Of a stretch of 61,089 nt of DNA, positions 19,472 through 61,089 are shown piece by piece. The notes under the pieces are model-generated. The model saw nothing but the letters and a program-made list of their open reading frames with translations. It was not told the DNA's origin and searched no databases. Each line of letters starts with the position of its first letter. Position 1 is the first letter of the stretch. Both the position numbers and the translations under genes were made by a program. This DNA comes from a virus. Its lineage: Duplodnaviria; Caudoviricetes. Location: positions 1 to 61,089 of IMG/VR virus record IMGVR_UViG_3300025108_000045, one strand, 5' to 3'.

Positions 19472-19472
19472 G

Positions 19473-40867: not shown

Positions 40868-42267
40868 TAAATCATCTCCACAAGTCGGTCAGCGTCGTCA
40901 AGGAGACGAAGGGTTTCACCGTCCCGACTAAACATCGCACGAACTCCCACCTCATCAATGTTCCACTCTTTCAAGAGTTCCTCGCGCTTATCGGGAACAT
41001 CCTTCCAATTCAACCACTTTACAATGCGATACAACTCATCGCGGCGAGATTTCATAATGTCGGTTTTACGACCGCGCAAATCAAGCAACTCAATCACTGC
41101 ACCAGCCTGTCCCTTCTTCATCCGCAAGTGTTGGGTGATGCCTTTCATCAATTTACGCAAATCTTTCTCACTGTAAAATTGCAGTCGATGTTGAGTCCGT
41201 CGGCTGTTCTTATGAATTTTCAAATCGGTTTGCAGTACGCCACAACCAAGCGCTTTGTGTAAATTCTCACAATGCATCTTACCTCGCTCACCCGTAGCGA
41301 TAAAGCCAGCGCGGGGTTCCATCCTCTTCGTAATAGTGATGTAGCCGTCAGCATCAAGAAAACCAGCGGCATAAGCCCACACATCTTTGAAAATAACTGT
41401 CTCATCGCGCACGATTCCCCAAGATGCACCAATCTTCTCAATATCATACTCAACGCCGTGCATTTTGAGAATCATGCTCAACCGATTAGGAGAAAGATTT
41501 CTCGCTTTCTCAATGCTTGCGCATAATTCGTTTGAAGAAAGCGGCCCGCGCTCTTCAAGAATCAAGTGTGCTTTGGTTAATACGATTGCATCAGTTTTTT
41601 TGATGTTGTCAACAGAATGTAAAGAACTTCTCCATTCCTTCTTTGCATCTTTTTTGAGTTGCTGAGCCTGTTTCCATATTGCTCTTTGCTCATCATTGAA
41701 ATTTCCATCAATGAGCAACAATTTAGTTATGGCATCGTTTGCCTTCTCCCACTGTACGCACGCGCGCCGAAGAGAATACTCTCGCGAACTACCGTGTTTT
41801 CTCAACGCTTGCAAATCTCGTTCATTTATGCCTAAGTTGCGAACAGTATTCTCATGCTTACCAATCCAATCAATTGATTGTAGCGTAGCCTCGACCTCTT
41901 GTTTCTTTGCAATTCGGATAGCGTCGATAGCGTGGTCGATAGCGTCACGCATATCTTTATTTTGACGGCGAGCCATTCTCAAGTCTTTGACTAAATCACC
42001 AGCCCCACGACCAAACATAGATTGGAACCATCCACCGTCGGGAAGTGACTGCTTTAGTTGTTGGTTAATCATCCCTCGCATCTTTTTCTCTTCCTCAGCC
42101 TCTTCGATTTGATTCGGACGCGCAGGTGTAGGGTTAGCGTTCGCTTCCCCTTCCCCTTGAGAAGTGGGTGCGGGAGCGTCTCCGAAGGAGGGACCGCGTA
42201 TGTTTGTTTTAAGAAGCGGGTGATTGCTCAACATGTCTTGGATGGCGGTCAAATCAATTGCACTCAT
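40867..42267 (-). CDS. Helical + winged-helix + LAGLIDADG endonuclease-domain protein (466 aa)
   Basis: AYAAGFLDADGYI motif near residue 300; wHTH-like GPLSSNEL...SPNRLSMILK; GAGGTGA SD; coupled to the portal gene. Confidence 0.8.
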   Translation of the reverse strand: MSAIDLTAIQDMLSNHPLLKTNIRGPSFGDAPAPTSQGEGEANANPTPARPNQIEEAEEEKKMRGMINQQLKQSLPDGGWFQSMFGRGAGDLVKDLRMARRQNKDMRDAIDHAIDAIRIAKKQEVEATLQSIDWIGKHENTVRNLGINERDLQALRKHGSSREYSLRRACVQWEKANDAITKLLLIDGNFNDEQRAIWKQAQQLKKDAKKEWRSSLHSVDNIKKTDAIVLTKAHLILEERGPLSSNELCASIEKARNLSPNRLSMILKMHGVEYDIEKIGASWGIVRDETVIFKDVWAYAAGFLDADGYITITKRMEPRAGFIATGERGKMHCENLHKALGCGVLQTDLKIHKNSRRTQHRLQFYSEKDLRKLMKGITQHLRMKKGQAGAVIELLDLRGRKTDIMKSRRDELYRIVKWLNWKDVPDKREELLKEWNIDEVGVRAMFSRDGETLRLLDDADRLVEMI

Positions 42268-42391
42268 GACGCATCACCTCACCGCTCCCGTCCATGGCTA
42301 AGGGATTACCGTTTTTAAGCCAACAGTCTTTACAAAATCCAAAAGGATAAATTACGGGGCTGTGATAACACTCCCCGCAATAAGTTGACAT
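42254..42391 (-). CDS. Zinc-finger microprotein (45 aa; absent from ORF track)
   Basis: MSTYCGECYHSPVIYPFGFCKDCWLKNGNPLAMDGSGEVMRHECN; start overlaps the upstream TAA; two CxxC. Confidence 0.7.
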   Translation of the reverse strand: MSTYCGECYHSPVIYPFGFCKDCWLKNGNPLAMDGSGEVMRHECN

Positions 42392-43068
42392 TAACAGTTC
42401 CACCTTTTCAGCGACGCGCCTTTAGGAGTGAGTTTACCACCCTTGCTTGTTGCACCTTTCATTCCACTCATCCGCGCACAAAAAGACTTACGCCTCTTAG
42501 CCTTCTTTGAGCCGGGTTTGAGTTTGCTTGGTTTGGTTGTTACAGGAGGTTTGAGATTCGCACCGCTCTTACGCTTGGCGGCGGCACGACCTTTGGCGTT
42601 CAATCCACCCTTCTTGCTATGCTTGTTTGGATTGTAGCCGTGGAAAGGTTTGCTCTTTTTCTTGGCTTTGAGAAGAGCGGATGAAATGTCCATTGGTGAA
42701 CAGCAATTGCAGAATGAAACTTCTTTTGCAATTACCCTACTATCCATTGTTGCTAATTCTTCTGCTGTTATTGGTTCGTGCATTATGTATTCGTAGTTCA
42801 TCTTAACCACCGTGGGCTTACCACCCACTCCTTGTTTTTTGCTACGCTTGCGTTTTGTCGCCGCGCGCTTTTGACCCGACGACATAGAGCCGCTGGTCTT
42901 AGGAGTTTTACTTGTTACTTTGACAGAAGGGCGACACTTAGGGTAGCCCTTAGAAGATTTACTGGCTTTGCTTCGACCACACGGAGGATGCTTACCATCC
43001 TTACCTGTGCGCGAAACATCCACCCACTTCTCCTTGAACCAACGGTTCAAGTTCTTTTCAATTGTCAT
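42391..43068 (-). CDS. Highly basic two-domain protein (225 aa), candidate DNA-condensing core protein
   Basis: K/R-rich domains WFKEKWVDV...CGRS...YPKCRP and GGLNAKGR...RRKSFCARM...WNC, joined by a linker ending PMDISSALLK. Confidence 0.7.
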   Translation of the reverse strand: MTIEKNLNRWFKEKWVDVSRTGKDGKHPPCGRSKASKSSKGYPKCRPSVKVTSKTPKTSGSMSSGQKRAATKRKRSKKQGVGGKPTVVKMNYEYIMHEPITAEELATMDSRVIAKEVSFCNCCSPMDISSALLKAKKKSKPFHGYNPNKHSKKGGLNAKGRAAAKRKSGANLKPPVTTKPSKLKPGSKKAKRRKSFCARMSGMKGATSKGGKLTPKGASLKRWNC

Positions 43069-43452: not shown

Positions 43453-44853
43453 TCAATCCAACAGCCCCATCATTATATCATCCAAGTCCACGATTCGTTC
43501 GCGGAACTCTGTGGTAGCCCAATGAGCCAAAGCAAGAGCGATGGCGAAGTCATCGTGTCGTCCGATGCTGTCGAGTCGTCCTTTCTTACTCATACCGAAC
43601 ATCAGCAATTCTTTCTCAAGTTCAGCCATCAGCGAGCGAGAACGGTCGTCACCCCACGGCAGTCGCATCTGTTCGTTCTCGAATCGCAATACCAAACCCA
43701 TGAGAAGCGACTCACGGCGTTGGCGCGTGGAAATGAATGTTTTGATAGGAAGGTCTGTGTCTGCGCGCAACTCAGTTGCGAAGACCCGCTGGAAGTTGTT
43801 CGCCTCTAATTCAATCACATCGGGATTGAACTTCGCGTTAATTCTTTGAATTTCCATAATCTGTGTTCGGAAATCCATGTTCTTACGGCGCACTGCATGA
43901 ACCAATTCAAGCAGTTCGGGGTTGGTTGATGGGCGACGAAGAACTACCATTACAGTAAAGTCAGCGGCCCTATCGGAAGAGATAGCAGGGTCCCAACCGA
44001 CAAAGTATTGGTCGTCGGGGTCACCGACTTCGCGGTCAATAATTTTGAGTGTAGTGTCTTTGGCGAGTTGAAGAACGGTCGAAGGGAACAGACTGCTCAC
44101 ATCGTCCATAGGTTCGCAAAGATATTCTCGCGCAAACGCAATCGCAGGCATGTCAGCCCTGCGCGCATCCAATGCTTCTAAGTCCCATCGTTCGGGCCAA
44201 AGGGCTATTCCTTTTGCGTTGATTGCCGGATATGTTTCAACAAGATACCCGTCGCGACTCTCAAGTTCAGTGTAAAGGTCAGTCGGAGTAAACGGTGTGC
44301 CGACAATCATCAGTTTGGATGTGTGGTGAAGTGTAGGTACAAGAACTTCGTAAAACCAAGAAGCCACTCTCATTAGTTCAGTATCTGTTGTACCCCACAG
44401 AATGTCGTCACAGAGGATGAGGTCGGGGTGGATACCACGGATAGCGCCTCCGACAGACTTCGCGCTGATGTTTGAGCCATTGCTAAAACCGAAGAAAGTC
44501 TTTGACCAACTGTCAGCCTTCTTCATCTTAGCGAGAAAGGGTATGCCATCAATAAGGTCATTGAGTGTGCGCATGTGGTGGATGGACTGATGAAGACTGT
44601 GTGAAATCAAGACAGCCTTCGTCTTAGGGTTGAATGCTGTTTTCCAAAGCATGTAGCCGAGGAACAGTGTTGATTTGCCGTGGTCACGCGCCGCTTTGAC
44701 GCAATAGCGCTTGTGTGATTCAAGATTGTTGAACCATTGATTGTGATGCGTTGAAAGTTGAAACCCAAGAATCTCTTCAAAGAAAAACTTGAAGTCACGC
44801 TTCGCGACTTCAAAGTCGATTTCTTCTATTGCTTCAAGGGATAACGATTCCAC
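43453..44853 (-). CDS. terL: Terminase large subunit (466 aa)
   Basis: Walker A AARDHGKS, Walker B LILCDD, coupling motif VGTP, nuclease motifs VGWDPA..DFT and HDDFAIALALA. Confidence 0.95.
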   Translation of the reverse strand: MESLSLEAIEEIDFEVAKRDFKFFFEEILGFQLSTHHNQWFNNLESHKRYCVKAARDHGKSTLFLGYMLWKTAFNPKTKAVLISHSLHQSIHHMRTLNDLIDGIPFLAKMKKADSWSKTFFGFSNGSNISAKSVGGAIRGIHPDLILCDDILWGTTDTELMRVASWFYEVLVPTLHHTSKLMIVGTPFTPTDLYTELESRDGYLVETYPAINAKGIALWPERWDLEALDARRADMPAIAFAREYLCEPMDDVSSLFPSTVLQLAKDTTLKIIDREVGDPDDQYFVGWDPAISSDRAADFTVMVVLRRPSTNPELLELVHAVRRKNMDFRTQIMEIQRINAKFNPDVIELEANNFQRVFATELRADTDLPIKTFISTRQRRESLLMGLVLRFENEQMRLPWGDDRSRSLMAELEKELLMFGMSKKGRLDSIGRHDDFAIALALAHWATTEFRERIVDLDDIMMGLLD

Positions 44854-49549: not shown

Positions 49550-50215
49550 TCATTCACCTCCCATCAACTTGCCGCGAAGACGCGCCCATACTTCGGGAGA
49601 CTCTTTCGCTAATTCAACTTTGAGGATGTTAATCGTTTGAGCAGTCATGTGCTCATTTGTTGTACCAGCCGCGCGTTCTTGTACGCGCATTATGTCTTTC
49701 ACCGTCTCACGCACCTCTTTGTGTAACGAAACAATGTTGCGCACATATTGAGGGTCGTTACGGTCTGCATCATCAAGGAAGTGACCAAGTTCGCCGTTGA
49801 GTCGCGATAAATTATTACGGATGCTTTGCATTTCTTGTCCCGATTCGACAATGATGAGTTCAGCCGCCCCCTTTTGCACAATGGGTTTGAGGTGATGTTT
49901 GATGTGGTGATAAACGCTCGATTCGGGTATTTGAATGTCCAAAGCAATTTCATCAGCGGTCATCGCGCCATTGAAATAAGCCTCTTCAAGATTTTCTCGT
50001 TTAGAAGAAGTGCAAAATCCACATTCGCTATTACTTGCCATGTGATAATCACCCATGTGATTTCGGAAATGCCGGTCTGCTGTACCTTCGCGCCAATCCA
50101 TGTCTTTATCCAAATCCTTGGCGATAACTAACCCGCCTTTCATCATCTCTTCTAATGAGTCGCGACCTTCGTCTTGGCAGAACTTGCAAGAACTACGAGT
50201 TACACGCTCCGCCAT
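49550..50215 (-). CDS. Probable terminase small subunit: tandem CxxC-HTH-HxxxH domains plus coiled coil (221 aa)
   Basis: Start MAERVT after a TATA-like box; CKFC...HFRNH and CGFC...HIKHH repeats; helical C-terminus; first gene of the terL operon. Confidence 0.55.
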   Translation of the reverse strand: MAERVTRSSCKFCQDEGRDSLEEMMKGGLVIAKDLDKDMDWREGTADRHFRNHMGDYHMASNSECGFCTSSKRENLEEAYFNGAMTADEIALDIQIPESSVYHHIKHHLKPIVQKGAAELIIVESGQEMQSIRNNLSRLNGELGHFLDDADRNDPQYVRNIVSLHKEVRETVKDIMRVQERAAGTTNEHMTAQTINILKVELAKESPEVWARLRGKLMGGE

Positions 50216-50238
50216 GACAAAGACCAAGTATCGGTCCG

Positions 50239-50247
50239 CGTTAAGCA
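50239..50247. promoter_or_regulatory. Putative bidirectional TATA-like element (CGTTAAGC)
   Basis: TTAA core about 29 nt from ATG 50215 (minus strand) and about 33 nt from an in-frame GTG at 50274 (plus strand). Confidence 0.45.
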
Positions 50248-50252
50248 TTTCT

Positions 50253-50591
50253 ATGAGAAAGCGACTCAACCGTGTGCCTAAAATTGGCGGCGTGCCGATG
50301 ACAAGAGCCACGGCAAAGAGTCTTTCACATGCGGCTAAAGATGTTTTGACAGGACAAAAAGCAACTCTCAAAGAAAGAGAAGAAAGGTTGTGGATTTGCT
50401 CATCATGCCCCGAACGACAACAAAATAGGTGCGGATTATGCGGTTGCTTTTTGAAAGGCAAAAGTATGCTCAAAAACAGCAAATGCCCTATCGGTAAATG
50501 GTCAACCTTGTTGAGAGAGGCGGCGGTAAACGATGCCAGTCGCGCTGAAACAAACGAAGAGCGCGCCAATAATCCAACTCAAGTCACTTGA
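50253..50591 (+). CDS. Cys-rich zinc-binding protein, the only plus-strand gene recognised (start ATG 50253 or GTG 50274)
   Basis: RLWICSSC...RCGLCGCFLKGK...KCPIGKW, a pattern I associate with a small phage family (DUF6171-like, from memory). Confidence 0.75.
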   Translation: MRKRLNRVPKIGGVPMTRATAKSLSHAAKDVLTGQKATLKEREERLWICSSCPERQQNRCGLCGCFLKGKSMLKNSKCPIGKWSTLLREAAVNDASRAETNEERANNPTQVT

Positions 50592-50735
50592 ACTCATTTT
50601 TGGGCCGGAAAAGACCAAAATAAGAAAACAACCAAGCGTCAATGCGATAAGTTGCACCATAATCATGTCAACGACGACTGATTTTCGCAAGTTCGTCATG
50701 TCGCTCAATGCGCCATAAATACTCGTCATGTCCAT
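50502..50735 (-). CDS. Small two-TM membrane protein (77 aa)
   Basis: Hydrophobic segments IMVQLIALTLGCFLILVF and LSWIIGALFVCFSATGIVY; last gene of the GTPase operon. Confidence 0.7.
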   Translation of the reverse strand: MDMTSIYGALSDMTNLRKSVVVDMIMVQLIALTLGCFLILVFSGPKMSSSDLSWIIGALFVCFSATGIVYRRLSQQG

Positions 50736-50736
50736 C

Positions 50737-51333
50737 TCATCGTCCCCCTGTCAAAGCAGAGCGCAGGAAAGAGCCGCCTGTTGAAGCAACTGTTTGCATC
50801 ATGCCGGGGTCGGCTAATGCAGTGTTCAACATGCCTTGCATAGAACTTTGATTCGCGATTGCAATCATTTGTTGGAATTGCATGTTCATTTGTTGAACAT
50901 TGTTTGATGCGGCATTGAGCATTTGAGTTTGAGCCATCGTCACACTGTCGGGAGTAGGCATACCTTCAATGCCGCTGAAATCAAACGAAAAACCATCGTC
51001 ACTTTCCTTGATTTTTACTTTTGAAAGCATTTGGTGCATCGAAACGGCAACAATGTTACTCGTCAACGCGATGAGCATGTTCATATTAGCACCGTTGTTA
51101 TCCGACAGCCACTTGTCAATCATCGGATTGCTGGTAATCATCATTGAAAGAATATCCATTTCAGTAGGCGGCGGAGGGGGCGCGTATGGGTTTTGATAAC
51201 CTTGTTGCGCGTAATTTGCACCCATTTGGGGCATTTGCCCCGGCACTTGTTGCTGTCCGTTGGCGAGTCCAAGATTAAGCGCACCATTCATTGGTTGCGC
51301 GGGCTGATTGTTGTTGTTGTTCCACCACGCCAT
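50737..51333 (-). CDS. Gln/Asn/Met-rich low-complexity protein (198 aa)
   Basis: GAGGTGG SD; MAWWNNNNN start, PPPPP and amphipathic helices. Confidence 0.75.
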   Translation of the reverse strand: MAWWNNNNNQPAQPMNGALNLGLANGQQQVPGQMPQMGANYAQQGYQNPYAPPPPPTEMDILSMMITSNPMIDKWLSDNNGANMNMLIALTSNIVAVSMHQMLSKVKIKESDDGFSFDFSGIEGMPTPDSVTMAQTQMLNAASNNVQQMNMQFQQMIAIANQSSMQGMLNTALADPGMMQTVASTGGSFLRSALTGGR

Positions 51334-51342
51334 GATACCACC

Positions 51343-52227
51343 TCAAGCGCTACCCTCATTTTGTTGTTGCGGTAGCGGCATAGGCATGCTTTGTTGTTGC
51401 ATTTGATGCATTGCGAGAGCATCTTGTAGCATTCGCGTGTTATTCCCTGCTTGGAATTGTCGCATATCAAAGACAATCATCACTAAATCATTCATACCTG
51501 TCGCGGTATTAGTGAAATGCGTCACTGGAATGTTGTCTTGCTTCAACATCGCGAAAAATTGCTCATATTTTGCAAGTATCGGAGGGGTGTTGTCTTTCTT
51601 TTTGATACTGCTGACTGGTACAGCCACTACTGAAACACCCTTCTTTAGTTTCGCCTTGAGCGTCCCTCCACTCGCTTCTTGCTCAGCCTCTTCTTCCTTC
51701 TCCCACTTGCAGAGCAAATGGTACAGGTGAAGGTGTTCGGGGCAGTAAGTTCCTCGTAATTTACGCCCACTTGTGACATTTTCGCGCGCTACAAAGGCTT
51801 CTGCTTCTCCTGTGACCGGATTTTTGAAGTAAATGTCCCATAATGACTGTCCTGTCTCTTCGTCAATGATTTGTTCGTAAATGTTACCCGCCATGCGCAA
51901 AAGATGCTCCACATCGCAACCATCAATGACACATCGCATGGTGTTGGTGTTGTATCGGTACTTTCCACCAAATAACCACCTTCTTGGGGACAAAATAGAC
52001 CTTTTTGTGCCTTTCAACAAGCGATACGCTTGCTTAATGTCCTTTCTTCGCGCCTTTTTGGGGTTAGGATGTTGCGAAGGATAGAAATTTACCTGCGGAA
52101 CTTCAATGTGAGTGCTTGCTTCACTCATCGCGGACTGTGCAGAAGCCTGTTGTTGCATCTGTGCAAGGCTCATTTGGGTCTGTGCGGCAAGGCGTAATAG
52201 GTCATTTTGGGGTGTATTTCCGAGCAT
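51343..52227 (-). CDS. Protein with Gln-rich ends and a putative Zn-binding core (294 aa)
   Basis: Likely start MLGNTP; CVIDGC...YCPEH; directly downstream of the GTPase. Confidence 0.7.
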   Translation of the reverse strand: MLGNTPQNDLLRLAAQTQMSLAQMQQQASAQSAMSEASTHIEVPQVNFYPSQHPNPKKARRKDIKQAYRLLKGTKRSILSPRRWLFGGKYRYNTNTMRCVIDGCDVEHLLRMAGNIYEQIIDEETGQSLWDIYFKNPVTGEAEAFVARENVTSGRKLRGTYCPEHLHLYHLLCKWEKEEEAEQEASGGTLKAKLKKGVSVVAVPVSSIKKKDNTPPILAKYEQFFAMLKQDNIPVTHFTNTATGMNDLVMIVFDMRQFQAGNNTRMLQDALAMHQMQQQSMPMPLPQQQNEGSA

Positions 52228-52231
52228 TTTG

Positions 52232-52954
52232 TCACCAACTGAGCATTTCAATCATCGTTTTTTCGACATTCCAGCCGATTTTAGTCGCCATCATGCTGAC
52301 GCGACATGGAATACCTGCTTTTTGTAGTCTTCGCATGGCCGGACGATGCACATCGAACACTTTATGCTCGCGTAATCGGTTAGATTGCCATAATATGTTC
52401 GCATTTTCATCCCACCACTCGTCTGCTTTGTTCGCGACCAGCCAAATTTGCTTAGGAGTGTACCTTTTTCCTCTAATTCGAGTCTTCAAAGAGCGGTATT
52501 TCCATCTTTTTTCAATTAAAGCATCAACAAGGAACTCAAAACCACCAATCGCGTCAATAACTTTCGCCCCTTGGCCTCCTAAGACGCGCGTATCGGTCAT
52601 GAATACAACAATTTCCACTTGTCTGTCCACCATATCGTCAATCCATAGGTTCCAAAAGCGTTGTTGTCCTCCAATATCGGAAGAATGAACCACTCTCTTC
52701 TCTCCTTTCCAGCGAAGACGCTTTCGCGTAGCCTGCGGAAGAACATATCCTCCGCCAATGAGCCTTTTTGCATGCATGGTGCGCTCTTCAATGTCATCCA
52801 TCTCGCCCGGAGTGCGCATAAATTGGTCGAGAGTCGTCTTTCCGACTTGCGTTGGACCGTAAACACCTATTCTGCGCGGCTTTAGGTAGTTATACAGTTC
52901 ACGACCGTACACAACCGCGCCCATAAGCGCGCTACCAGCCATTGTTGCAACCAT
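52232..52954 (-). CDS. Ras-superfamily small GTPase, Arf/Arl-like (240 aa)
   Basis: G1 GPTQVGKTT, G2 EERT, G3 DIGGQQRFWNLW, strand VVFMTD, G4 NKAD, G5-like MATKIGWNV; N-terminal hydrophobic/amphipathic helix. ATG overlaps the upstream TAA. Confidence 0.9.
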   Translation of the reverse strand: MVATMAGSALMGAVVYGRELYNYLKPRRIGVYGPTQVGKTTLDQFMRTPGEMDDIEERTMHAKRLIGGGYVLPQATRKRLRWKGEKRVVHSSDIGGQQRFWNLWIDDMVDRQVEIVVFMTDTRVLGGQGAKVIDAIGGFEFLVDALIEKRWKYRSLKTRIRGKRYTPKQIWLVANKADEWWDENANILWQSNRLREHKVFDVHRPAMRRLQKAGIPCRVSMMATKIGWNVEKTMIEMLSW

Positions 52955-53190
52955 TATGTCACCCAACCGCGAACTTTATTGTAAACCCACTCAACAGTGT
53001 TCTCCCAAATGCTCACATCAGCATGCAATTCAAAAAAAGACACACTCAAAGCAGTCACAAACCCTGTTATCACGCACAACACCAGCGCCTTTCCCTTTTC
53101 ATAATAAGTGTCAAGCGTGTTTTGAGTGTGCAAAGCGCGAAGTGTTGCCTCGGTAGCATCATCTCCGGGTGTTTTGAACAACCATCCCAT
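52954..53190 (-). CDS. Single-TM membrane protein with a C-terminal amphipathic helix (78 aa)
   Basis: MGWLFK start; TM ALVLCVITGFVTALSVSFF; IWENTVEWVYNKVRGWV. Confidence 0.75.
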   Translation of the reverse strand: MGWLFKTPGDDATEATLRALHTQNTLDTYYEKGKALVLCVITGFVTALSVSFFELHADVSIWENTVEWVYNKVRGWVT

Positions 53191-53194
53191 TGAT

Positions 53195-53707
53195 TCACTT
53201 CCTTTTCTTAGCGTATGTACCATCGGGGTTCCTGCGACCTGTTTGGTTACCCAGTTTCATGGGCTTTTTGGTGTCTGCTTTGTGGGCAGGCACATCACCT
53301 TCTTCCATCAACTTGATGTAATCTTGAACTTCGGGGTCTTCTTCCAATTTTTGCATTTGTTGCGAAAAAACGGCTTCCTGTTTCTTGATTTCCATTTCCA
53401 TTTGACGCTGAGCGAATTTCATTTGTTGCGCTTGCATGGTTCGACTCATGTTTTTCTGCATGTTTGCAATAACTGCGCGCTGGTCCATGCCATCTTGTGC
53501 CAACATTTTGTAAATGAAGTAAGCCATTCCCTGCAAAGTGAACGCACCCATGGTGTAGGTAATCGCGTTCGTATAAGTATCGGGCGATGTAAGCCATAAT
53601 TCAGCATCGAAGACAGCAATCGCGCATCCGACGAGGATGCTTACGAATGATATGAGTCCCAATACGCGTAATTCGTCTGTGTTTGAAGAGTTAGGGCTTG
53701 GTTGCAT
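53195..53707 (-). CDS. Two-TM protein with a C-terminal coiled coil (170 aa)
   Basis: AGGAGG SD; TMs VLGLISFVSILVGCAIAVF and AITYTMGAFTLQGMAYFIY; Q/M/K/E heptad-rich tail. Confidence 0.8.
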   Translation of the reverse strand: MQPSPNSSNTDELRVLGLISFVSILVGCAIAVFDAELWLTSPDTYTNAITYTMGAFTLQGMAYFIYKMLAQDGMDQRAVIANMQKNMSRTMQAQQMKFAQRQMEMEIKKQEAVFSQQMQKLEEDPEVQDYIKLMEEGDVPAHKADTKKPMKLGNQTGRRNPDGTYAKKRK

Positions 53708-53847: not shown

Positions 53848-56800
53848 TCAATCATCTTCCGGCATTTGTCGGAACCGATTTTGCGGCAATTGCGGTGGCT
53901 TGAACGCGAACGGAGGCAATTCACCCGCTTGGCCGGGTTCTGCCGCCTTGTCATCGTATGGCTGACGGATGGTCATCGGAAGCGGTTGTTGAACTGGCCC
54001 CTCACCTGCTTGCGGGTAGCGTTGCGCGAACTGTTGGGCTTGAGAACCGAGTCTTGTTCTTGCATCACTGGTACTGCCTGTCGCACCCTGCTGAGGTGCT
54101 GTCCCACTTGGTTGCGTTTGCATTTGCTCTCCTTGCGGTCCAACCGTCGCCTGTTGACCGATTGGTCGCGAAGAAGGACTCATTGGGACTGTTCCTCGCT
54201 GTGTCGCAGGGCCTTGCAATCTCTCACCAAACTGCTGTTCACCATAAGCAACTGCGTCGTAGGTTTCCAAATCCTCATAGTCGCCAAAAGTAATTGTAGG
54301 GTGGAACATTGTCGCTTTCGCGTTTATCCCTTCTATTTGCTCGATGAGTTCTGCTGAAACTTCGCCGTTTTCTAAGTCTTTTCTCAATTCACTCGCGTTT
54401 CCATAGCCATTCTCACCCATGAGGTCAGTCATAGCCTGCATTCGCATCCAATTCGGGTAGTGGCGGAATAGAGCCATTTCTTCCATTTGCGCGACAATCT
54501 TTTCATCTCTTGCTTTAGATTCATCAGTCACTGAGGATTGAGCGGCAACACTGTCTTGGTAAAGTTGGTCAATTTCTAATGGCAACTTTTGCGCACTACT
54601 CTTGGATACTTTAGAATTTTTCAATACATCGTTTTTGAAATCCAAACCACTGGTTAAACCGCCACCGAAATCTTTCTTCGTGTTTTTCAAATCAATAGAA
54701 CGCTCCATGTCTTCTTCATCATCATAGCCAAACATACGCGCCGCTTCGTTGTAAGCAAATGTTTGCAAATCGCCTCGCATTTGCACTGTCTCAAAGAAGT
54801 TCTCGACACTTAGGCGCGTATCAGCACTGTTGCCATTTGCTTTCATCGCGTCAACAACTTTCTTGTGGAAGTTGGGGTGTGAAATATCATCATAGGATTC
54901 TAAGAACTTCTTCAGCATTGAGAGCCTTGCGAATTCAACATACATTGGCTTCACAATTTGATTGACTGCTCGCTTGTGACCAGCATCAAGCCCCTTACGC
55001 GGTCCACCTCTCGGAGAATCCCCTTCTTCTTTTTCAAGTGACAAGTAATCTTTGATGCTTGAATAAGATATTCCTTCTGCGGATAATTTGTCGAGTAAAG
55101 ACTGGTCCCAACGGATTTCACCGTCTTCCATTTCAAGGTTCTCTTGGTCGCGAACATCATCGGGAGCATTGAACTCATCGTAAAGTTGACTTAGCGCAGG
55201 GTTTGACATTTCACTCAACTTTTGTTTGACAAGAGGTTTCTTCATTTGACCGACAATTTCCTTTGTCTTCTCCGCCTTTTCTTCGTCAAAATTCGATGTG
55301 TGCAGGTAGCGATTAAGTGCATCCATCATTGGTTTTGAATGCTTGAACATGTCTCTCAAATCTTTGAGACTCAAATGAGGCTCCGCCTTGCTATTTGGCG
55401 CGAATATGCCTTCATCGTTTTCAGCGTCAGTCAACCAACGACCGTGATTGTAAACAAGCGACTCATGAGACATCCCCGACTCCGACTGCACCTTATCATC
55501 ATCAAGCGAAAACAGTTTTTTGTTAGCCTTTCCCTTTTCGTTGTATTTCTTTGGGTAATCTTTGACCATCAAATTGTGCAATTTAGCGCACGCTGTTTGC
55601 ACAGTGTGATTGCGTTGACCGTGCGACCCTGCGATGTTAGGGTGGTTTTGAATTACACTCAAGAGATTATTGACCTTCTCTTCGCTTGCTCCGTTATTGA
55701 TAGCCTTAGCCGCCATCCCTTCTGCGCGCTTTAATATCTCATTGTTATGGTGCGCGTCTCGCAAACCTTTCAGTTTTTCTTGCGATTCGGAGATTACACC
55801 CATAGCATCATCTATGGGATTCACTTTCGCGTCGCTTATTTCGGGCGCTTTGCTCCGTTCACTGAATGCGTTAGAATAATAGTATCCACTCTCGTTAAAA
55901 TCCTTCTCAGTCATCTTAATCTTGGCTTTCTTAGCGTAACGCTCTTTGTTCAACGCTTGAATGGTTTTCAATTTAGTGAGAGGTAATGCTAACCCCCTTT
56001 CGACCGCATCGCGATGCATTTTCGCAGTGAAATTATTGCGTCCTGTTTTACCAACACCTTCTTCATCAAGCCGTTGTTGAATCATAGCGTTAAGACCATT
56101 TTCATCGTAATGTTCTCCGTAGTGAGGGCTGTGCTTGTGTCCATGGAAAACTTCACCTGTTTCTTCATCGACATAACCCCCGAAGTATTCGTCCACTTGG
56201 TCGGGGTCAAGATAACCGCTACCGTGACAATGCGCGCACATACCATCCGAACATCTTCCTCCCTCGGCGTCGGGGTGTTCTTGGTCGCATTCGGGGCAAG
56301 CAACTCCGGGGAACTCATGCCCTCGCATGTCCGAATGATGGCTATCAAAATCACCGTGATTCGTGGCGCGCAGATTCTTATGGATGTAATCCTGCATCTT
56401 CGGGCCGTTAGGGTTAGCACCAGCCAAAGCAGGGTTGTGTGCTTGAATGAATGAAATCGCATCATCCATAGTGACCTTTCCACTACCTCCGCAAAGGCCA
56501 CATCCTGTCGCACTGTTCATCACCCAATTTTCTTGCTTCCCTTCCGTATCATAAGCCTCGCGCTGTAACAATTCTCGGACTTGATGTTCTCTCATCTTAC
56601 CACTTGGGGGTATTTCTTCTTGAGGTATTTCCTCTTCTTGTGTACCAAGCACATCGTCTATGAGTTCTTTGTTCCAATCCGCATTATCTTCATTATGGAA
56701 AGCATCGTTCGCGAGTGTCAATTGTTTTTTGGTTAATTTACGACCATGTTGTTTGAGGCTCAACGCTTGTAGCGTTTCAGCGTCAGTCAATCCATACAAA

Positions 56801-59800
56801 AGTCGATTGTTTTGCTGGTGGGTCAATCCTGTTCCAACGCTTTGTCCGATAGCGCCCGTCATGTATTCATCGGGACGATACATGAAACTTCGATGTTCGT
56901 CTCCGTAGCCGTCAGCCAAGAATACATCGGGAATAGGAAGGCCGTCTTTGGATGTGTAAAGTTGCGTCGTTAGCGCACTGAGTTTATTCCTCAAGTGTTG
57001 GTCATCTTTCTTACCAAGAAGCGGCGCTAAGAGGTGACCGATTTTGAGGAACGCGCCGAAGGCTTGTTCTGTACGATGATTGTCGTAATCCACATCTTTC
57101 GCTAAGCGATTAGCAGTCTTATCATGCGAACCCGCCCTGCTTTTGATAGTTTTGAGGAATTCCGGTAAATTCTCAATCTCACCATTGAGCGCCTTTTTCT
57201 CAGCCGCGCTTCTCATTTCAAACGATATTAGTTTGTTGCTATGGTTGGGTTCGGTGATTTGCATTCCACTGTCTTCATGGAAATCATCATCATTGGCTAC
57301 TGGAACATCTTGTGTGAGTGGAACCTCAAGTTTCAGTGCGTAATTTTGGTCATCGTATTTTGGTGGTCTAATATCAACAACAGCATTCTCTTGCCCACCA
57401 ATGTTGATTTTCATGCCGTTTGAAACAACGCCATGTAAGTGGAAATCTTTCGCGCTCACCTCAACATAATCTCGACCAGCCACACCGCGATTAGCAAGCC
57501 GCATCTTCTTTTCTTTAATTTGGTTCATGCTTGCAAGAATATCTTGCTTAGCAAGTTCGCGCATTTCTTTCAAGCGCGCTTTCAATTTCGCATGCCCTTC
57601 GGGGTTTGACTTTTTACTCAAGTCACCGTTCTCCATACGCTGGCCGTATTCTTCTTTGAAACTCTTTTGATAATCTTCCCATTCGTCAATTGATGGTTGA
57701 ATGTGTTGCAAAAAGGAATTGTAGCGTCGCGCTTTGCTTTCGGCCCTTTTCGCGGCGTTTGCTTCTCCGAACATAGAGGCAATGAACTTTCGTCGCTCTT
57801 TTCTGCTCCTATCATTCCCTTTCCTATCCATCTTTGTCAGCGATTTGAGATTGATGCGCTTCCCTTCGGGCGTCGTCAACGCTCCACTCTTTATGTCTTG
57901 AAGAATATCAAAGGCTTCCACAACTCCACTAAATTGCGCGGCGGTCAAGTTTCTAATACGCGACTCTTCTCTTTGCGCGTCGTTTTGGAAAGCAGACGCG
58001 TGAATTAACCCCAATGCCTGTCTTTCATGAGGTGTTCTGCGTGCCGCCCCCCGCTTACCTCGCGGACGGTCGCGCATATCAAGACCAAACTCATGTCCGA
58101 TTGCTTCGGCTCGGTCATGATGCGGTGAAGAAGGATGAACGATGGCTTTCTCGATTTGCTTTTTCAAATACTTTTTCAGTTCGCCTCCGCGACGGTCAAT
58201 GCCCTTTGTGTCTATCACACCATCGTCGGTTTGAAGAGGTGACCCGTCTCGCTGAGTCAACCCATATCTGCGCAACATTTGTCCAATGTACTCATCATCA
58301 TCATCGGCGAAGATGTATTTCGCGATAGTAAGAAGAGAAATCTCATCATCATTACCCATCAGTGGAATGCTACGACTTCTTGAATCATCATCATCCCACC
58401 TGTAATCCAATTCGGGCATGTAAATTCGCGAAAGAGCATAAGGTGAAACACCACGGGGGCGGTATGGGTGGTGTCCTTGTGCCTCTTCCTTGGTTTCATT
58501 AGCGAAGTGCTTAATGTCACACGCTTTGCACGCCTCTTTCTCAATTTTGTTTTCCACACGCTCTTCCGGTGACATTTGATAGTGCTCTCGGAATTGCTGT
58601 TTTTGCTCCTTGACCTCTTGATGCCGAGCAAGACCCTTGGCGCGAGCATCATTCGAGCGCTTCCAAGCATACAGGGTTCTCAAAACGGCCCCCTTGGATA
58701 CATCGCCACCGAATTTACCAAGAAGTTTCATGAAACCGTTTCTGTATCCTTGTACGGAGAATCCGCTCTTCGCGTACTCCATTCCCATTTCGGCAATATC
58801 AATAGGGTCGATTCCTATTTCCGAAACAGTCTTGCGCAAATCAAGCAAGTCGTGGTTTAGTTTGTTCAAGTATCCGGGCTTCAAACCTGTTTCCAATACG
58901 CGTTCGTATCGCGATTTATCTTTATCATTGAATCGCCCCAACTCAGCGTAAGGGTCATCGGAATGAAGTATTGTGTGAAGATGGTCCATGTCATCTGCAT
59001 GAAGCGCAAGTTTCTCCACTTCGCCTCGGTCCATGCCGAGTTTTTCCAAATGGTTATTGAATTGCATCATGTGCCTACCCGAACCTACGAGCAAGTCCAT
59101 GAAAATTCGCGATTTCTCTTCAATTTCACCAGCCGACAAATCACGGTATGGGTGTCCTTCGGGGAAATCGGAGCCATCGGGTATTTCACTGAAATATGTA
59201 GGGTTGTATGCCCTTCCACTCACATCATTCAAAATTTGATTGTAGTGAACTTGATATTCATCATTCGTCATGTCGCCGAAGAGAACCATGTTCTCTAAGT
59301 CCTTGAGGCGATAATCCGATTTGATTTTCTGCTCTCCTTGACGGTCGCTTGAGATAAAACGACGCGCGCGTGCTTGGTCTTGAGGTGTGTCTAATTTAAT
59401 ATCACTGAGTTGAGTACCTACGGTTTTCTCACCGCCTTTCTCAGCAATCTGTGTACCGCTTGCTGTTAAGTCAGCCGTCTCCTGTCTGCTCACTCCTTCG
59501 GCTTCATTGATTGTTCGGAAGATACCAGTTTCACTCAACGCCCTTTGCAGTGCAGGATGCAATCCGGTCATATCTTCAACCTCTATATCACCATCCGCAA
59601 TCTCCAACCTCCTTTTCTTTGATGTTGGGTTGTTAGGGTCTTTTATGAAAGGCTCAGCGTATCTTTCGTCAGCGTTAGGTTGCGTTATGCTTCGACCGAC
59701 ATTCTTCGCGGCTCGATGGAAAGCGTGAGTAACGAAATCGGGTCCTTGTCCAGCAATCGCTTCGCGTCCAAATCTGCCACCACGCCCTGCGCTTCCAATT

Positions 59801-60762
59801 GCGCGCTCTTGTAAGAAAATTCTCATGAAGTTGTTCACATCTTCTTGCACCAGTGGTACTGCATCTTTCTCACTGACTCCTTCTTGTTGCGCTTTATTGG
59901 TTATCAAGTTGCGCCATTTTGCTACATCGGATGAAGCAACCTTTGACTCTTCCAAATCCATGGTTTTGAAATCAACTTGCGGCAAGACTTTTTCATAAAG
60001 TTTACGCGCGGCCTCCATTCTCCCTTCATCAGTGGTGTATCTTCCGTCAGCGGTCAATTCACTCAACGCTTTTCGCCCTTGAGCCGACGCCTCATCCATC
60101 TGTTGTTGAAAGTAATCGGGCATAGTGCCGCCACGCGACGGTACAACACGAACAGCACGCGGGGAGACTTGGATGTCTTCCATGTCTCTCAAAGTCGATG
60201 TGCTAATCGGGTGTTTACTCTTGTTTTTCAAGTGGTTCAGCACGCCCTTCTGTTGCTGTTCGCGCTTTCGTCCACTTGCATCAATGCCTTCGCGCATCCA
60301 TTTGCCTATTTGGTTCGGGACGCGATTCTTTTTCATGAAATCTTCAAGCGAACCATGGTCCTCTTCGTCCATTTGTTTGCGGAACCCTAATTCTTCACCG
60401 AAGTGCTTAATCATACCATCAAGAGCAGTCAGTACGGGCTGTGTGAGCATAGGGAGAGCCATGATGCTCGGTGTGGTGATGTTGCCCTCTTCGTCTTTGA
60501 TGGCCTTGTATCGCGCATCATCGTCCAAATCAAACAACTCAGCGAACATGTGATTATTCGCGTAAATTATGTCACTGTAAAGCGCGTCATAGTCAATCTC
60601 ATCATCCTTCATGGGCGGATTTTTCATGAGGTTCTGTAAGTAGGGCCTCAAAGCAACCTGCCCGTCGAAAATGGCACGCTCTTTTTCGTTCATTTGAGCG
60701 TAGTTTTTATTGGTTTTGCGAGGCGCTTCGTCAGCCTTAACGATGCGGATGAAGCGACCCAT
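53848..60762 (-). CDS. Giant charged helical protein (2304 aa) with DnaJ-type Zn-finger motifs; putative internal virion protein
   Basis: Likely start MGRFIRIVK 30 nt after a TATA-like box; CGLCGGSG...CPEC...CAHCHGSG at 56215-56502; Q/P-rich C-terminus. Confidence 0.7.
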   Translation of the reverse strand: MGRFIRIVKADEAPRKTNKNYAQMNEKERAIFDGQVALRPYLQNLMKNPPMKDDEIDYDALYSDIIYANNHMFAELFDLDDDARYKAIKDEEGNITTPSIMALPMLTQPVLTALDGMIKHFGEELGFRKQMDEEDHGSLEDFMKKNRVPNQIGKWMREGIDASGRKREQQQKGVLNHLKNKSKHPISTSTLRDMEDIQVSPRAVRVVPSRGGTMPDYFQQQMDEASAQGRKALSELTADGRYTTDEGRMEAARKLYEKVLPQVDFKTMDLEESKVASSDVAKWRNLITNKAQQEGVSEKDAVPLVQEDVNNFMRIFLQERAIGSAGRGGRFGREAIAGQGPDFVTHAFHRAAKNVGRSITQPNADERYAEPFIKDPNNPTSKKRRLEIADGDIEVEDMTGLHPALQRALSETGIFRTINEAEGVSRQETADLTASGTQIAEKGGEKTVGTQLSDIKLDTPQDQARARRFISSDRQGEQKIKSDYRLKDLENMVLFGDMTNDEYQVHYNQILNDVSGRAYNPTYFSEIPDGSDFPEGHPYRDLSAGEIEEKSRIFMDLLVGSGRHMMQFNNHLEKLGMDRGEVEKLALHADDMDHLHTILHSDDPYAELGRFNDKDKSRYERVLETGLKPGYLNKLNHDLLDLRKTVSEIGIDPIDIAEMGMEYAKSGFSVQGYRNGFMKLLGKFGGDVSKGAVLRTLYAWKRSNDARAKGLARHQEVKEQKQQFREHYQMSPEERVENKIEKEACKACDIKHFANETKEEAQGHHPYRPRGVSPYALSRIYMPELDYRWDDDDSRSRSIPLMGNDDEISLLTIAKYIFADDDDEYIGQMLRRYGLTQRDGSPLQTDDGVIDTKGIDRRGGELKKYLKKQIEKAIVHPSSPHHDRAEAIGHEFGLDMRDRPRGKRGAARRTPHERQALGLIHASAFQNDAQREESRIRNLTAAQFSGVVEAFDILQDIKSGALTTPEGKRINLKSLTKMDRKGNDRSRKERRKFIASMFGEANAAKRAESKARRYNSFLQHIQPSIDEWEDYQKSFKEEYGQRMENGDLSKKSNPEGHAKLKARLKEMRELAKQDILASMNQIKEKKMRLANRGVAGRDYVEVSAKDFHLHGVVSNGMKINIGGQENAVVDIRPPKYDDQNYALKLEVPLTQDVPVANDDDFHEDSGMQITEPNHSNKLISFEMRSAAEKKALNGEIENLPEFLKTIKSRAGSHDKTANRLAKDVDYDNHRTEQAFGAFLKIGHLLAPLLGKKDDQHLRNKLSALTTQLYTSKDGLPIPDVFLADGYGDEHRSFMYRPDEYMTGAIGQSVGTGLTHQQNNRLLYGLTDAETLQALSLKQHGRKLTKKQLTLANDAFHNEDNADWNKELIDDVLGTQEEEIPQEEIPPSGKMREHQVRELLQREAYDTEGKQENWVMNSATGCGLCGGSGKVTMDDAISFIQAHNPALAGANPNGPKMQDYIHKNLRATNHGDFDSHHSDMRGHEFPGVACPECDQEHPDAEGGRCSDGMCAHCHGSGYLDPDQVDEYFGGYVDEETGEVFHGHKHSPHYGEHYDENGLNAMIQQRLDEEGVGKTGRNNFTAKMHRDAVERGLALPLTKLKTIQALNKERYAKKAKIKMTEKDFNESGYYYSNAFSERSKAPEISDAKVNPIDDAMGVISESQEKLKGLRDAHHNNEILKRAEGMAAKAINNGASEEKVNNLLSVIQNHPNIAGSHGQRNHTVQTACAKLHNLMVKDYPKKYNEKGKANKKLFSLDDDKVQSESGMSHESLVYNHGRWLTDAENDEGIFAPNSKAEPHLSLKDLRDMFKHSKPMMDALNRYLHTSNFDEEKAEKTKEIVGQMKKPLVKQKLSEMSNPALSQLYDEFNAPDDVRDQENLEMEDGEIRWDQSLLDKLSAEGISYSSIKDYLSLEKEEGDSPRGGPRKGLDAGHKRAVNQIVKPMYVEFARLSMLKKFLESYDDISHPNFHKKVVDAMKANGNSADTRLSVENFFETVQMRGDLQTFAYNEAARMFGYDDEEDMERSIDLKNTKKDFGGGLTSGLDFKNDVLKNSKVSKSSAQKLPLEIDQLYQDSVAAQSSVTDESKARDEKIVAQMEEMALFRHYPNWMRMQAMTDLMGENGYGNASELRKDLENGEVSAELIEQIEGINAKATMFHPTITFGDYEDLETYDAVAYGEQQFGERLQGPATQRGTVPMSPSSRPIGQQATVGPQGEQMQTQPSGTAPQQGATGSTSDARTRLGSQAQQFAQRYPQAGEGPVQQPLPMTIRQPYDDKAAEPGQAGELPPFAFKPPQLPQNRFRQMPEDD

Positions 60763-60786
60763 GATGAAGCGCACGACGAGCCTACC

Positions 60787-60794
60787 CTTGAAGG
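60787..60794 (-). promoter_or_regulatory. Putative TATA-like box (CCTTCAAG)
   Basis: The TT lies 30 nt upstream of leaderless ATG 60762, matching the spacing of the other boxes. Confidence 0.4.
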
Positions 60795-60819
60795 TAGCGG
60801 TTGGTGGGAATTTTAGCAT

Positions 60820-61089
60820 ATTTTTTTTAGGAATGCGCGCAGTTAGTTTTTACACCCCCCACGAAAAAAATGTCTGTATTCCGCATGCGGTTAAGCAGGG
60901 CAAATTGCCCTGCGCGAGACGCGAGTCCGGCTAACGCGAGGGGGTATTTGCCCGCGAAGCGCGAGGGCCACGCAGTGACGCGCGCAGGTTGCATCAGCGC
61001 TAAGGCATTGCATCGCGATAAGCAACCACGCGATGCTCGCGCGGGTTGTCGTCCCGCGAAGCCCGATTCATCATCGCGCTCCTCCAACC
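60820..61089. other. Non-coding region with A/T tracts, palindromes and clustered CGCG
   Basis: T8 and A7 tracts; CCGCATGCGG (60881-60890); GCAGGGCAA-a-TTGCCCTGC (60895-60913); CCCGCGAAGC twice; about a dozen CGCG in about 170 bp. Confidence 0.65.

Follow-up and report, generated by a model that had tools for sequence, protein, structure and literature searches.

A very divergent small-GTPase family with Arf-like structure and a conserved partner gene in marine magrovirus-like archaeal viruses

Introduction

Members of the Arf family of small GTPases carry the switch II signature DxGGQxxxRxxW, the DxGG of Sar1 being followed by a His, and SRbeta has a hydrophobic N-terminal anchor. In the account given in PMC11914678, the Arf-specific residues are a Gly at the third position of the G3 motif (DxGG) and Leu-Asp at positions 2-3 of G1 (G-L-D-x-x-GK[ST]), and Vargova et al. 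(bioRxiv 10.1101/2024.02.28.582541), who contributed the Asgard ArfR1 structures 8OUN and 8OUM, present an N-terminal amphipathic helix directly before the G domain as the defining feature of the family. Elsewhere in archaea, Mills et al. (2024, PMC10927574) describe ArvA, an Arf-like-folded GTPase with an Arf-like N-terminal helix and two operon partners (ArvB and ArvC), which drives vesicle formation in Haloferax, and Arf-type GTPases have been reported from a mobile-element-like region of the genome of Atabeyarchaeia, a group of Asgard archaea (Valentin-Alvarado et al. 2024, PMC11529989). Ras-superfamily proteins are also encoded by giant viruses (e.g., the mimivirus Rab, PDB 5XC5, and the Arf and Rab proteins on GVMAG contigs). 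Here, we analyze a stretch of DNA of 61,089 nucleotides, the whole of which we call the window (IMG/VR virus record IMGVR_UViG_3300025108_000045, positions 1 to 61,089), and a gene on its minus strand that codes for a small GTPase of 240 residues (P0001), which an earlier sequence-only reading had assigned to the Arf family and linked to the origin of eukaryotic trafficking GTPases.

We found P0001 to be a real but very divergent Ras-superfamily small GTPase that constitutes a family of its own. The literature on viral or archaeal-virus small GTPases yielded no description of this family, although supplements may hold annotations; the main texts, as distinct from the supplements, of PMC5434244, PMC11706807, PMC10160649, PMC10768690 (the Aoguangviridae profile) and PMC8651126 (Liu et al. 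2021) nowhere use the word "GTPase". Most magrovirus genes are described as lacking an assigned function (PMC5434244), and a review of archaeal virus egress sets out three modes, in which a small GTPase enters as speculation only (PMC10791045). What is new here is a viral, very divergent small-GTPase family with an Arf-like structure, insertions of its own and a dedicated partner.

A Small-GTPase Family of Marine Magrovirus-like Viruses

The open reading frame (ORF) singled out by the sequence-only reading is present, as are all the strings it quoted, including the switch II string DIGGQQRFWNLW, the basic insertion KRWKYRSLKTRIRGKRY, the N-terminal string ALMGAVVYGRELYNYLK (residues 9-25) and NKAD; an alternative TTG start lies at 52966, four codons upstream of its ATG. 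P0001 displays the G1, G3 DxxG, G4 and G5-type motifs in order on a Rossmann-like G-domain fold, and an AlphaFold2 (AF2) model built on 18 relatives (mean predicted local distance difference test score, pLDDT, 89.6; predicted template modeling score, pTM, 0.86) shows a classical G domain after a helix at residues 2-24. Its relatives form 386 clusters (90% identity) at E<=0.01 among 648 candidates, many of them labelled Tara Oceans and with contigs of up to ~100-117 kb, and an exhaustive HMMER pass over 1.84 billion representatives yielded 73 matches at E<=1e-3, which, judged by length and score, look like members of the GTPase family or fragments thereof. Within IMG/VR, relatives of P0001 are encoded in 151 of 153 candidate stretches, and a second, 32%-identical subfamily (P0319-type) in 375 of 382. 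An alignment of 132 full-length relatives, to which all residue counts below refer, shows G1, G3, G4 and many further positions conserved in at least 90% of the sequences. The conservation of the G-domain motifs across so large a family makes the observation a real one, far beyond chance.

Single-sequence searches recover little of this. P0001 alone has no match in Pfam at E<=1, reaches only small_GTP at E 0.16 in NCBIfam and matches only PHROGs families of unknown function, and those weakly; 50,697 phage records searched by tblastn with the GTPase returned nothing at E<=0.01, and for the most distant family members, P0165 and P0191, no context was found in IMG/VR. Two JGI records bear the automatic name "GTPase SAR1 family protein". 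All 22 sequencing-run holders of the GTPase are marine or seawater DNA metagenomes, with no RNA holder listed. A close cellular homologue is absent from the genomes that we searched.

The virus itself can be identified from its structural genes. The window, a linear record with a CheckV completeness of 58%, carries, besides the large terminase TerL, a portal, a prohead protease, an HK97/SU10-type capsid protein and a tail tube. Against the same 50,697 phage records the capsid protein finds 11 matching records, all of them archaeal viruses, with the haloviruses HCTV-1, HCTV-5 and HVTV-1 as the best (32.9-34.5% identity). Magroviruses are described as marine, MGII-associated viruses with genomes of ~100 kb, a chaperonin gene and a major capsid protein (MCP) ~33% identical to that of Druskaviridae haloviruses only (Philosof 2017, PMC5434244). 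Three complete relatives carrying the GTPase measure 102.9, 118.2 and 103.3 kb, and all three code for a Cpn60/TCP1 chaperonin; the one that was scanned is a thermosome by NCBIfam (E 4.7e-128), to which the nearest correctly binned cellular thermosomes are those of Poseidoniaceae (42%). MCP, genome size, thermosome, marine origin and the Poseidoniaceae affinity of the thermosome are thus all those of a magrovirus. The Pfam MCM model matched none of the three complete relatives; magrovirus MCM-type proteins are described as needing profile-profile searches (PMC5434244). We conclude that the window is a fragment of a ~100 kb magrovirus-type archaeal tailed virus, and we found the GTPase family only in marine magrovirus-like archaeal tailed viruses. 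The G+C content of the window (45-54%) lies well above that of the Aoguangviridae exemplar (31.5%; PMC10768690), so this lineage probably represents another group of magroviruses. By ARAGORN, the 61 kb window contains no tRNA gene.

Among 401 Poseidoniales genomes searched with the profile, two full-length copies of the GTPase turned up, both next to a member of g302, the family of the gene immediately downstream in the window (see below); the other 16 Poseidoniales matches are weak (E 7e-4 to 0.01), and each covers no more than a small part of the profile. The host is probably Poseidoniales, not Asgard archaea. A metagenome-assembled genome (MAG) labelled Parvibaculum (G007; loci L084, L085, L164 and L166) holds two thermosomes 66% and 49% identical to the viral one, along with two copies of the viral GTPase with g302, and a Yoonia MAG (L087) holds a Poseidoniaceae-like thermosome; these contigs appear to be viral or archaeal ones that were wrongly binned into bacterial MAGs.

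Conserved Motifs, N-Terminal Helix and Insertions

The family consensus of the P-loop is GPTMVGKT (see Table 1 for the version in P0001). In G3, the third position (G95) is Gly in 103 of the 132 relatives, Ala in 24 and another residue in 5, and the residue before D93 is Ala or Ser rather than an aromatic one. The Gln that follows DxGG, which the sequence-only reading took to be the retained catalytic residue, is indeed there in P0001, but it is no feature of the family: position 97 is Glu in 62, Gln in 48, Asp in 11 and His in 6 of the 132. As this position is so often Glu, catalysis may rely on a residue supplied by a partner or be slow. The G5 position reads SAK in the P0319-type subfamily.

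Relative to Arf-sized GTPases, the family has three additions of its own: one in switch I of ~17 residues, lying between a conserved E-x-R-T-x-H and L-P-x-x-T-R-K-R; a basic/aromatic segment; and a Trp-rich insert after NKAD (W180 in 123/132, W181 in 117/132). The basic insertion noticed earlier holds up, with 9 K/R and no D/E in 18 residues and a conserved pattern in its region (Y153, R154, G162, Y165 and P167, each in at least 122/132).

The N-terminus is likewise as first described, hydrophobic and then amphipathic: on the Eisenberg scale residues 1-17 are uniformly hydrophobic (muH 0.10-0.21) and residues ~14-26 amphipathic (muH up to 0.61), in keeping with the helix of the model, and two glycines are conserved in the hydrophobic part (G7 in 126/132, G12 in 123/132). 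A weak phmmer match of P0001 in the PDB joins residues 8-28 (~52871-52933) to the transmembrane (TM) N-terminus of the mitochondrial ATP synthase subunit e (E 0.26), with the string YNYLKPR in common; this likeness probably reflects chance, or else the convergence of a membrane helix that contains Gly.

Structural and Sequence Affinity to the Arf Family

Family profiles run against all PDB sequences found Asgard GerdArfR1 (8oun_A) as the best match (E 1.6e-7 and 7.7e-8), followed by Arl8A/B and Arl10 at ~2e-4 (Arl8A 1.8e-4), the N-truncated GerdArfR1 8oum (2e-4), and, lower down, Rab33B (8e-4), IFT22 (1.5e-3), KRas (~0.014-0.03) and Arf1 (0.03). The full-length GerdArfR1 scores 35.4 bits against 24.2 bits for the truncated one, and this difference of ~11 bits indicates that the helix before beta-1 contributes to the match; the viral N-helix aligns with that of GerdArfR1. 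In the structure comparison, Arf-family members hold the first ten places of the ranking and the first four in an unbiased scan. The best structural matches of the model, a single predicted conformer, are GTP-bound Arf-family chains, so it resembles the GTP forms. The Foldseek search of the PDB returned generic Rab, Rho, Ras and Rap chains as its own top 50; taken alone, it lends no support to an Arf assignment. Feature neighbours in the ESM Atlas outside the viral clusters are bacterial clusters with PF00025 in 17-67% of their members.

The Pfam Arf model (PF00025) gave 0 candidates in the window, and P0001 stays below its curated threshold. Scanned singly, the 132 members give weak matches to Arf (33), Roc (24), MMR_HSR1 (13), RagA (7) and Ras (6), and also to EF-Tu, with a best E-value of ~3e-4 overall and of 0.0048 for Arf. 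As to the Arf-specific residues, the DxGG of G3 is present (G95), and the Leu-Asp of G1 is absent, P0001 having GPTQVGKT; set against DxGGQxxxRxxW, the family keeps D93, G96 and W104 and has Trp at the Arg position in 124/132.

Compared to the Asgard ArfRs (GerdArfR1 8OUN/8OUM; HodArfR1 8OUK), the viral GTPase shares the helix directly before beta-1 and the switch II pattern DxGGQ..F/W.NLW, and it likewise needs no myristoylation signal; it differs in being ~60 residues longer with the three family-specific insertions, in its GPTQVGKT G1, in the unconserved Gln97, in the first 17 residues being hydrophobic instead of amphipathic, and in being viral and probably Poseidoniales-associated. With the eukaryotic Arf family (Arl8, Arl1, Arf1, Arf6, Sar1, SRbeta) it has in common the DxGG in G3 and the switch II Trp, its N-terminus recalls the anchor of SRbeta, and some distant members of the viral family have, as Sar1 does, a His after DxGG; it lacks a PF00025 match, the "GLD" in G1 and an aromatic residue before D93, has Trp for Arg at 101 and displays a more Rab/Ras-like G5 region (MAT/SAK-x-G-x-NV). 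In fold, in the DxGG...W switch II and in the helix before beta-1, the family is most like the Arf/Sar/SRbeta/ArfR branch, and to this extent the Arf resemblance claimed earlier stands, with 8OUN as the best PDB match; judged by its sequence, the GTPase cannot be placed robustly in that branch.

Head-to-head comparisons used references from two sources: 34 Arf-type and 108 Rab/Ras-type ORFs, near-canonical in sequence, obtained by short motif scans of giant-virus contigs in IMG/VR (L184:2585-3112 (-), L185-L345), and ArvA sequences gathered via the OapA-OapB-OapC operon of genome G008. Single sequences aligned by hhalign to the viral profile have a median score of 42.2 for the Arf type (n=30) versus 36.0 for Rab/Ras (n=92), a difference with a Mann-Whitney p of 0.0015 between sequences that are not independent and whose ranges fully overlap. 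Profile-profile comparison gives the reverse order, with Rab/Ras at 85.8 over 164 columns, Arf at 63.7 over 88 and ArvA at 59.7 over 69; eight subsamples of 26 Rab/Ras sequences score 74.1-87.7 (median 78.7), above the 63.7 of the Arf set, and only the Rab/Ras set lets hhalign reach the C-terminal half. The Arf and Rab sets score 197 against one another, far above either against the viral family. The giant-virus Arf of L184 aligns at a probability of 93 over 143 columns, and nanohaloarchaeal ArvA at 93.7 (E 1.8e-7) over 46 columns comprising the N-helix, P-loop and start of switch I; in global mode, ArvA scores 69.0 versus 50.9 for the Arf set.

In a maximum-likelihood (ML) tree of 89 sequences, for which the references were confined to Arf (26) and Rab/Ras (26) of giant viruses and to ArvA (14), each of the four groups forms one side of a well-supported branch. 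The Arf affinity expected by the sequence-only reading appears in this tree, which joins the virus and Arf at a Shimodaira-Hasegawa-like approximate likelihood ratio (SH-aLRT) support of 84, and is gone once the switch II columns (residues 91-105) are removed, when the virus joins ArvA at a support of 54; the Arf signal in the sequence is thus largely the switch II signature. A tree constrained to unite the virus with Rab has a log-likelihood 16.3 above that of the free quick tree and is not rejected by the approximately unbiased (AU) test (p-AU 0.74). The ML trees do not fix the place of the viral family among Arf, Rab/Ras and ArvA.

The Partner Gene g302 and the Surrounding Module

On the minus strand, the genes run in the order 2323-aa ORF, g170, g89, GTPase, g302, g198, g77, g339, three ORFs of 422-582 aa and TerL (Table 1). 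The GTPase is tightly packed against its neighbours: the stop of g89 overlaps its ATG by one base (TAATG), and g302 starts 4 nt past its stop or, with the TTG as its start, overlaps it. g302 has no match in Pfam, among PDB profiles or in the Atlas; its alignment shows invariant Cys, Pro, Gly and Asp positions in the motifs C..DGxD and GTYCPxH. The neighbourhood was counted by tblastn in 80 related loci, some misses in which are possibly contig ends: the GTPase and g302 are each found in 80/80 and TerL in 77/80, and the GTPase is the second best conserved of the proteins counted (median identity 83%, versus 88% for TerL).

The pairing with g302 extends to diverged members of the family. g302 lies next to the GTPase in all eight more distant loci (GTPase identity 30-56%). 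In the 32%-identity subfamily, tblastn detects it in only 8 of 80 loci, missing 72; the GTYC[EP]xH motif is present in 61 of these 80. A representative locus of the subfamily (L351) shows the order hydrophobic 165-aa ORF, 73-aa ORF, GTPase, 226-aa ORF and Q/M-rich ORF, and its 226-aa product is homologous to g302 (hhalign probability 96.3, E 1.7e-9; controls 8.5 and 0.1). The GTPase and g302 stay paired throughout the loci examined, apart from those in which tblastn failed. At the places equivalent to g170 and g89, L351 has ORFs with hydrophobic stretches, as judged by eye, and its Q-rich ORF is compositionally like g198 and sits in the same place. The module adjoins morphogenesis genes in both of these diverged lineages, next to TerL in the window and, in L351, with the capsid gene 2 kb upstream. 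Between that capsid gene and the GTPase module of L351, a 164-aa ORF (8487-8981 (+)) carries a C-terminal SAP domain (E 4.4e-10).

Among the further products, g339, with its CxxC pairs and weak helix-turn-helix, may be a DNA-binding protein, e.g., a small terminase or a regulator. The strand of the structural genes also carries three giant ORFs; the 1946-aa and 2323-aa products have no Pfam match at E<=0.001, and the latter is poorly conserved (tblastn in 34 of 80 loci, median identity 26%). TerL and the portal are separated by two ORFs, one with an HNH-endonuclease-like stretch and the other with DUF5872 and DUF6321 domains. In many related contigs (loci L004-L036), the GTPase lies ~8-9 kb from the contig end, as it does in the window (8.1 kb from the end at 61089), which suggests a common genome terminus or an assembly-breaking repeat beyond the giant ORF; magrovirus genomes are described as linear and terminally redundant (Philosof 2017, PMC5434244).

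Table 1. Positions in the window of the GTPase gene, its motifs and the neighbouring genes.
Feature	Position	Strand	Description	Basis or conservation
Small GTPase gene P0001	52232..52954	(-)	240 aa, ATG start	translation, family, AF2 model, G-domain matches
N-terminal helix	52877..52954	(-)	residues 1-26; hydrophobic 1-17, then amphipathic basic ELYNYLKPRR	
G1 / P-loop	52835..52858	(-)	GPTQVGKT, residues 33-40	G38 and K39 131/132
G3 / switch II	52643..52678	(-)	DIGGQQRFWNLW, residues 93-104	D93 128/132, G96 129/132, W101 124/132, W104 128/132
Basic/aromatic insertion	52460..52510	(-)	KRWKYRSLKTRIRGKRY, residues 149-165, between alpha-3 and beta-5	model and conservation
G4	52421..52432	(-)	NKAD, residues 175-178, then Trp-rich helical insert 179-197	N175 and K176 130/132, D178 129/132
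G5-like	52280..52291	(-)	MATK, residues 222-225; consensus MAT/SAK-x-G-W-N-V	sequence and conservation
g302	51343..52227	(-)	unknown family, 294 aa from ATG; TTG at 52251 would give 302 aa	
g89	52954..53223	(-)	small protein, one predicted TM segment	79/80 loci
g170	53195..53707	(-)	membrane protein, strong TM segment at residues 12-40, charged coiled C-terminal half	77/80 loci
g198	50737..51333	(-)	Q/N/M/P-rich low-complexity protein downstream of g302	64/80 loci
g77	50502..50735	(-)	small protein, two predicted TM segments	80/80 loci
g339	49550-50569	(-)	339-aa ORF, CxxC pairs and weak helix-turn-helix	PF0610-like_N E 0.002, HTH_20 E 0.024; 80/80 loci
TerL	43453-44853	(-)	large terminase	
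ORF between TerL and portal	42391-43068	(-)	225 aa, DUF5872 and DUF6321 domains	
ORF between TerL and portal	40867-42267	(-)	466 aa, HNH-endonuclease-like stretch	phrog_5046, E 6e-9
Giant ORF	4190-19534	(-)	5114 aa	
Giant ORF	32124-37964	(-)	1946 aa	
Giant ORF	53848-60819	(-)	2323 aa	

A Predicted Membrane Switch and Its Alternatives

We posit, with a confidence only slightly better than even, that the GTPase is a membrane-tethered nucleotide switch of its own small-GTPase family that acts late in infection with g302 as its partner. The hydrophobic-then-amphipathic N-terminal helix and the basic/aromatic insertion would tether it to the cytoplasmic face of the host cytoplasmic membrane, where it would cycle between GTP and GDP states. 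In one of these states it would engage g302, the Cys/His protein encoded by its translationally coupled neighbour, along with the small membrane proteins whose genes lie close by on either side. The module would then act late, at the membrane, in organizing the site of virion assembly or in egress. Membrane binding, GTP cycling, the partnership with g302, the timing and the cellular process are all predictions of this proposal, and several points weigh against it. The membrane binding is predicted from the N-helix and the basic patch in the sequence, and the N-terminus lies below a classical TM score (maximum Kyte-Doolittle 19-residue mean 1.31). Intrinsic hydrolysis may be unusual or absent in view of Glu at position 97 in 62/132, and the G2 threonine is ambiguous between T59 (128/132) and T76 (T/S in 126/132), which flank the ~17-residue insertion. 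The GTPase-g302 complex is putative, and the late timing is suggested by the position of the module beside morphogenesis genes. By single-sequence hhalign, the TM proteins and the Q-rich ORF of L351 show no detectable homology to g170, g89 and g198, and only the GTPase and g302 can be counted as firm parts of the module. The profile of the P0319-type subfamily alone also failed to replicate the ArfR match, with 0 PDB sequences at E<=0.1, a failure that its low diversity probably explains (mean column identity 88%).

The reading closest to the earlier one takes the family for a true member of the Arf/ArfR/SRbeta clade, in which an interswitch toggle of the Arf type, a register shift by two residues, exposes the N-helix on GTP binding, and hence for a virus-borne branch of the lineage of eukaryotic trafficking GTPases. 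The GerdArfR1 match (E 7.7e-8) with the contribution of its N-helix, the Arf-dominated structural ranking, the G3 Gly (103/132) and W104 (128/132), the virus-Arf branch at SH-aLRT 84 and the precedent set by those Arf-type GTPases of an Asgard genome that lie in a region resembling a mobile element (PMC11529989) all speak for it. We nevertheless consider it unlikely. P0001 has no Pfam Arf match, and of the 132 members 33 have weak ones to Arf, against 24 to Roc; G1 is GPTQVGKT and not G-L-D-x-x-GK[ST]; the Arg of DxGGQxxxR is Trp in 124/132; a Rab/Ras profile of equal size outscores the Arf one (median 78.7 vs 63.7) and aligns for longer (~164 vs 88 columns); the Foldseek top 50 are Rab, Rho and Ras; and the tree yields virus plus ArvA (support 54) without switch II and does not reject virus plus Rab, whose likelihood exceeds that of the free quick tree (p-AU 0.74). 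Vargova et al. (bioRxiv 10.1101/2024.02.28.582541), moreover, report ArfRs from no groups other than Asgard archaea and Korarchaeia, whereas the likely host is Poseidoniales. Membership in the Arf family, as asserted by the sequence-only reading, is therefore not borne out: Pfam Arf and the G1 Leu-Asp are lacking, Rab/Ras scores higher and the trees do not settle the matter. Accessory roles in morphogenesis or packaging, as an NTPase or as a nucleotide-bound scaffold that barely hydrolyses, with the basic insertion binding nucleic acid and the Arf likeness reflecting only the shared G-domain fold, strike us as very unlikely. Such roles would suit the place of the module, which lies between the 2323-aa ORF and TerL in the window and follows the capsid gene at a distance of 2 kb in L351, the frequent Glu at position 97, an N-terminal segment under the TM threshold, the scatter of weak Pfam matches over Arf, Roc, MMR_HSR1, EF-Tu and RagA, and a basic/aromatic insertion for which DNA or RNA is as possible a ligand as lipid; they do not suit the predicted membrane proteins that flank the gene, with hydrophobic-stretch ORFs seen by eye likewise in L351, nor the conserved hydrophobic, Gly-containing N-terminus (G7, G12), and Pfam, PHROGs and PDB searches of P0001 gave no similarity to terminase small subunits, scaffolds or packaging ATPases.

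It is very doubtful, too, that the family is a virus-captured and fast-diverged ArvA (OapA) or other Era-like archaeal GTPase that drives or hijacks a vesicle-type deformation of the membrane. In genome G008, the viral profile has its best match in ArvA, which lies there inside the OapA-OapB-OapC operon, aligns with the N-helix and P-loop region (probability 93.7, E 1.8e-7, 46 columns), outscores Arf in global mode (69.0 vs 50.9) and joins the virus once switch II is removed; both genes have a fixed downstream partner and Cys-rich proteins nearby, and ArvA is described as driving vesicle formation and as having an Arf-like N-terminal helix (Mills 2024, PMC10927574). That branch has a support of only 54%, however, and the sequence likeness is confined to the N-helix and P-loop region. 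ArvA is Era/MMR_HSR1-like (MMR_HSR1 at E 5.5e-15) with DxPG in G3, in contrast to the DxGG of P0001, which has no MMR_HSR1 match; hhalign shows no relationship of g302 or g339 to the products of the genes downstream of OapA, OapB (PF09846) and OapC (PF09845), with probabilities of <=1.1; and the 401 Poseidoniales genomes searched contain no ArvA-like close relative of the viral family. By analogy, ArvA, as an archaeal-world GTPase driving membrane deformation with a fixed partner, is plausibly the closest functional counterpart in archaea of the membrane switch that we favour. Giant-virus Arf and Rab proteins are likewise virus-encoded members of the Ras superfamily, but they are close copies of eukaryotic ones (mutual score 197, against 64 and 86 to the viral family), whereas the viral family occurs in tailed viruses of archaea, without a close source in cells. 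The GTPases of Atabeyarchaeia, set beside the viral family by their description, offer a precedent for Arf-like GTPases on archaeal mobile DNA (Valentin-Alvarado et al. 2024, PMC11529989); they lie in an Asgard chromosome and group, in the tree of those authors, with the Arfs of Asgard archaea and eukaryotes, unlike the viral family, which belongs to a tailed virus of marine Euryarchaeota-type hosts.

Implications

The relevance to the origin of eukaryotic trafficking GTPases that the sequence-only reading had suggested is unsupported, the virus being magrovirus-like with a probable Poseidoniales host and no close cellular relative of the GTPase having been found; by itself, the viral GTPase family says nothing yet on eukaryogenesis. 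A bolder scenario, which we hold to be quite unlikely, is that an abundant group of marine archaeal viruses carries an Arf/Sar-type membrane switch of its own with a dedicated partner, which remodels the archaeal membrane under GTP control for assembly or release and descends from the ancient archaeal stock that also gave rise to ArfR and ArvA; if true, membrane control by an Arf-style N-helix and interswitch would exist outside Asgard archaea and have been moved by viruses. For the evolution of GTPases, the family represents a new, very divergent lineage with an Arf-like structure that belongs in trees of the Ras superfamily. For the biology of these viruses, a conserved GTPase with a fixed partner among membrane proteins provides a testable handle on the dealings of tailed archaeal viruses with the membranes of their hosts.

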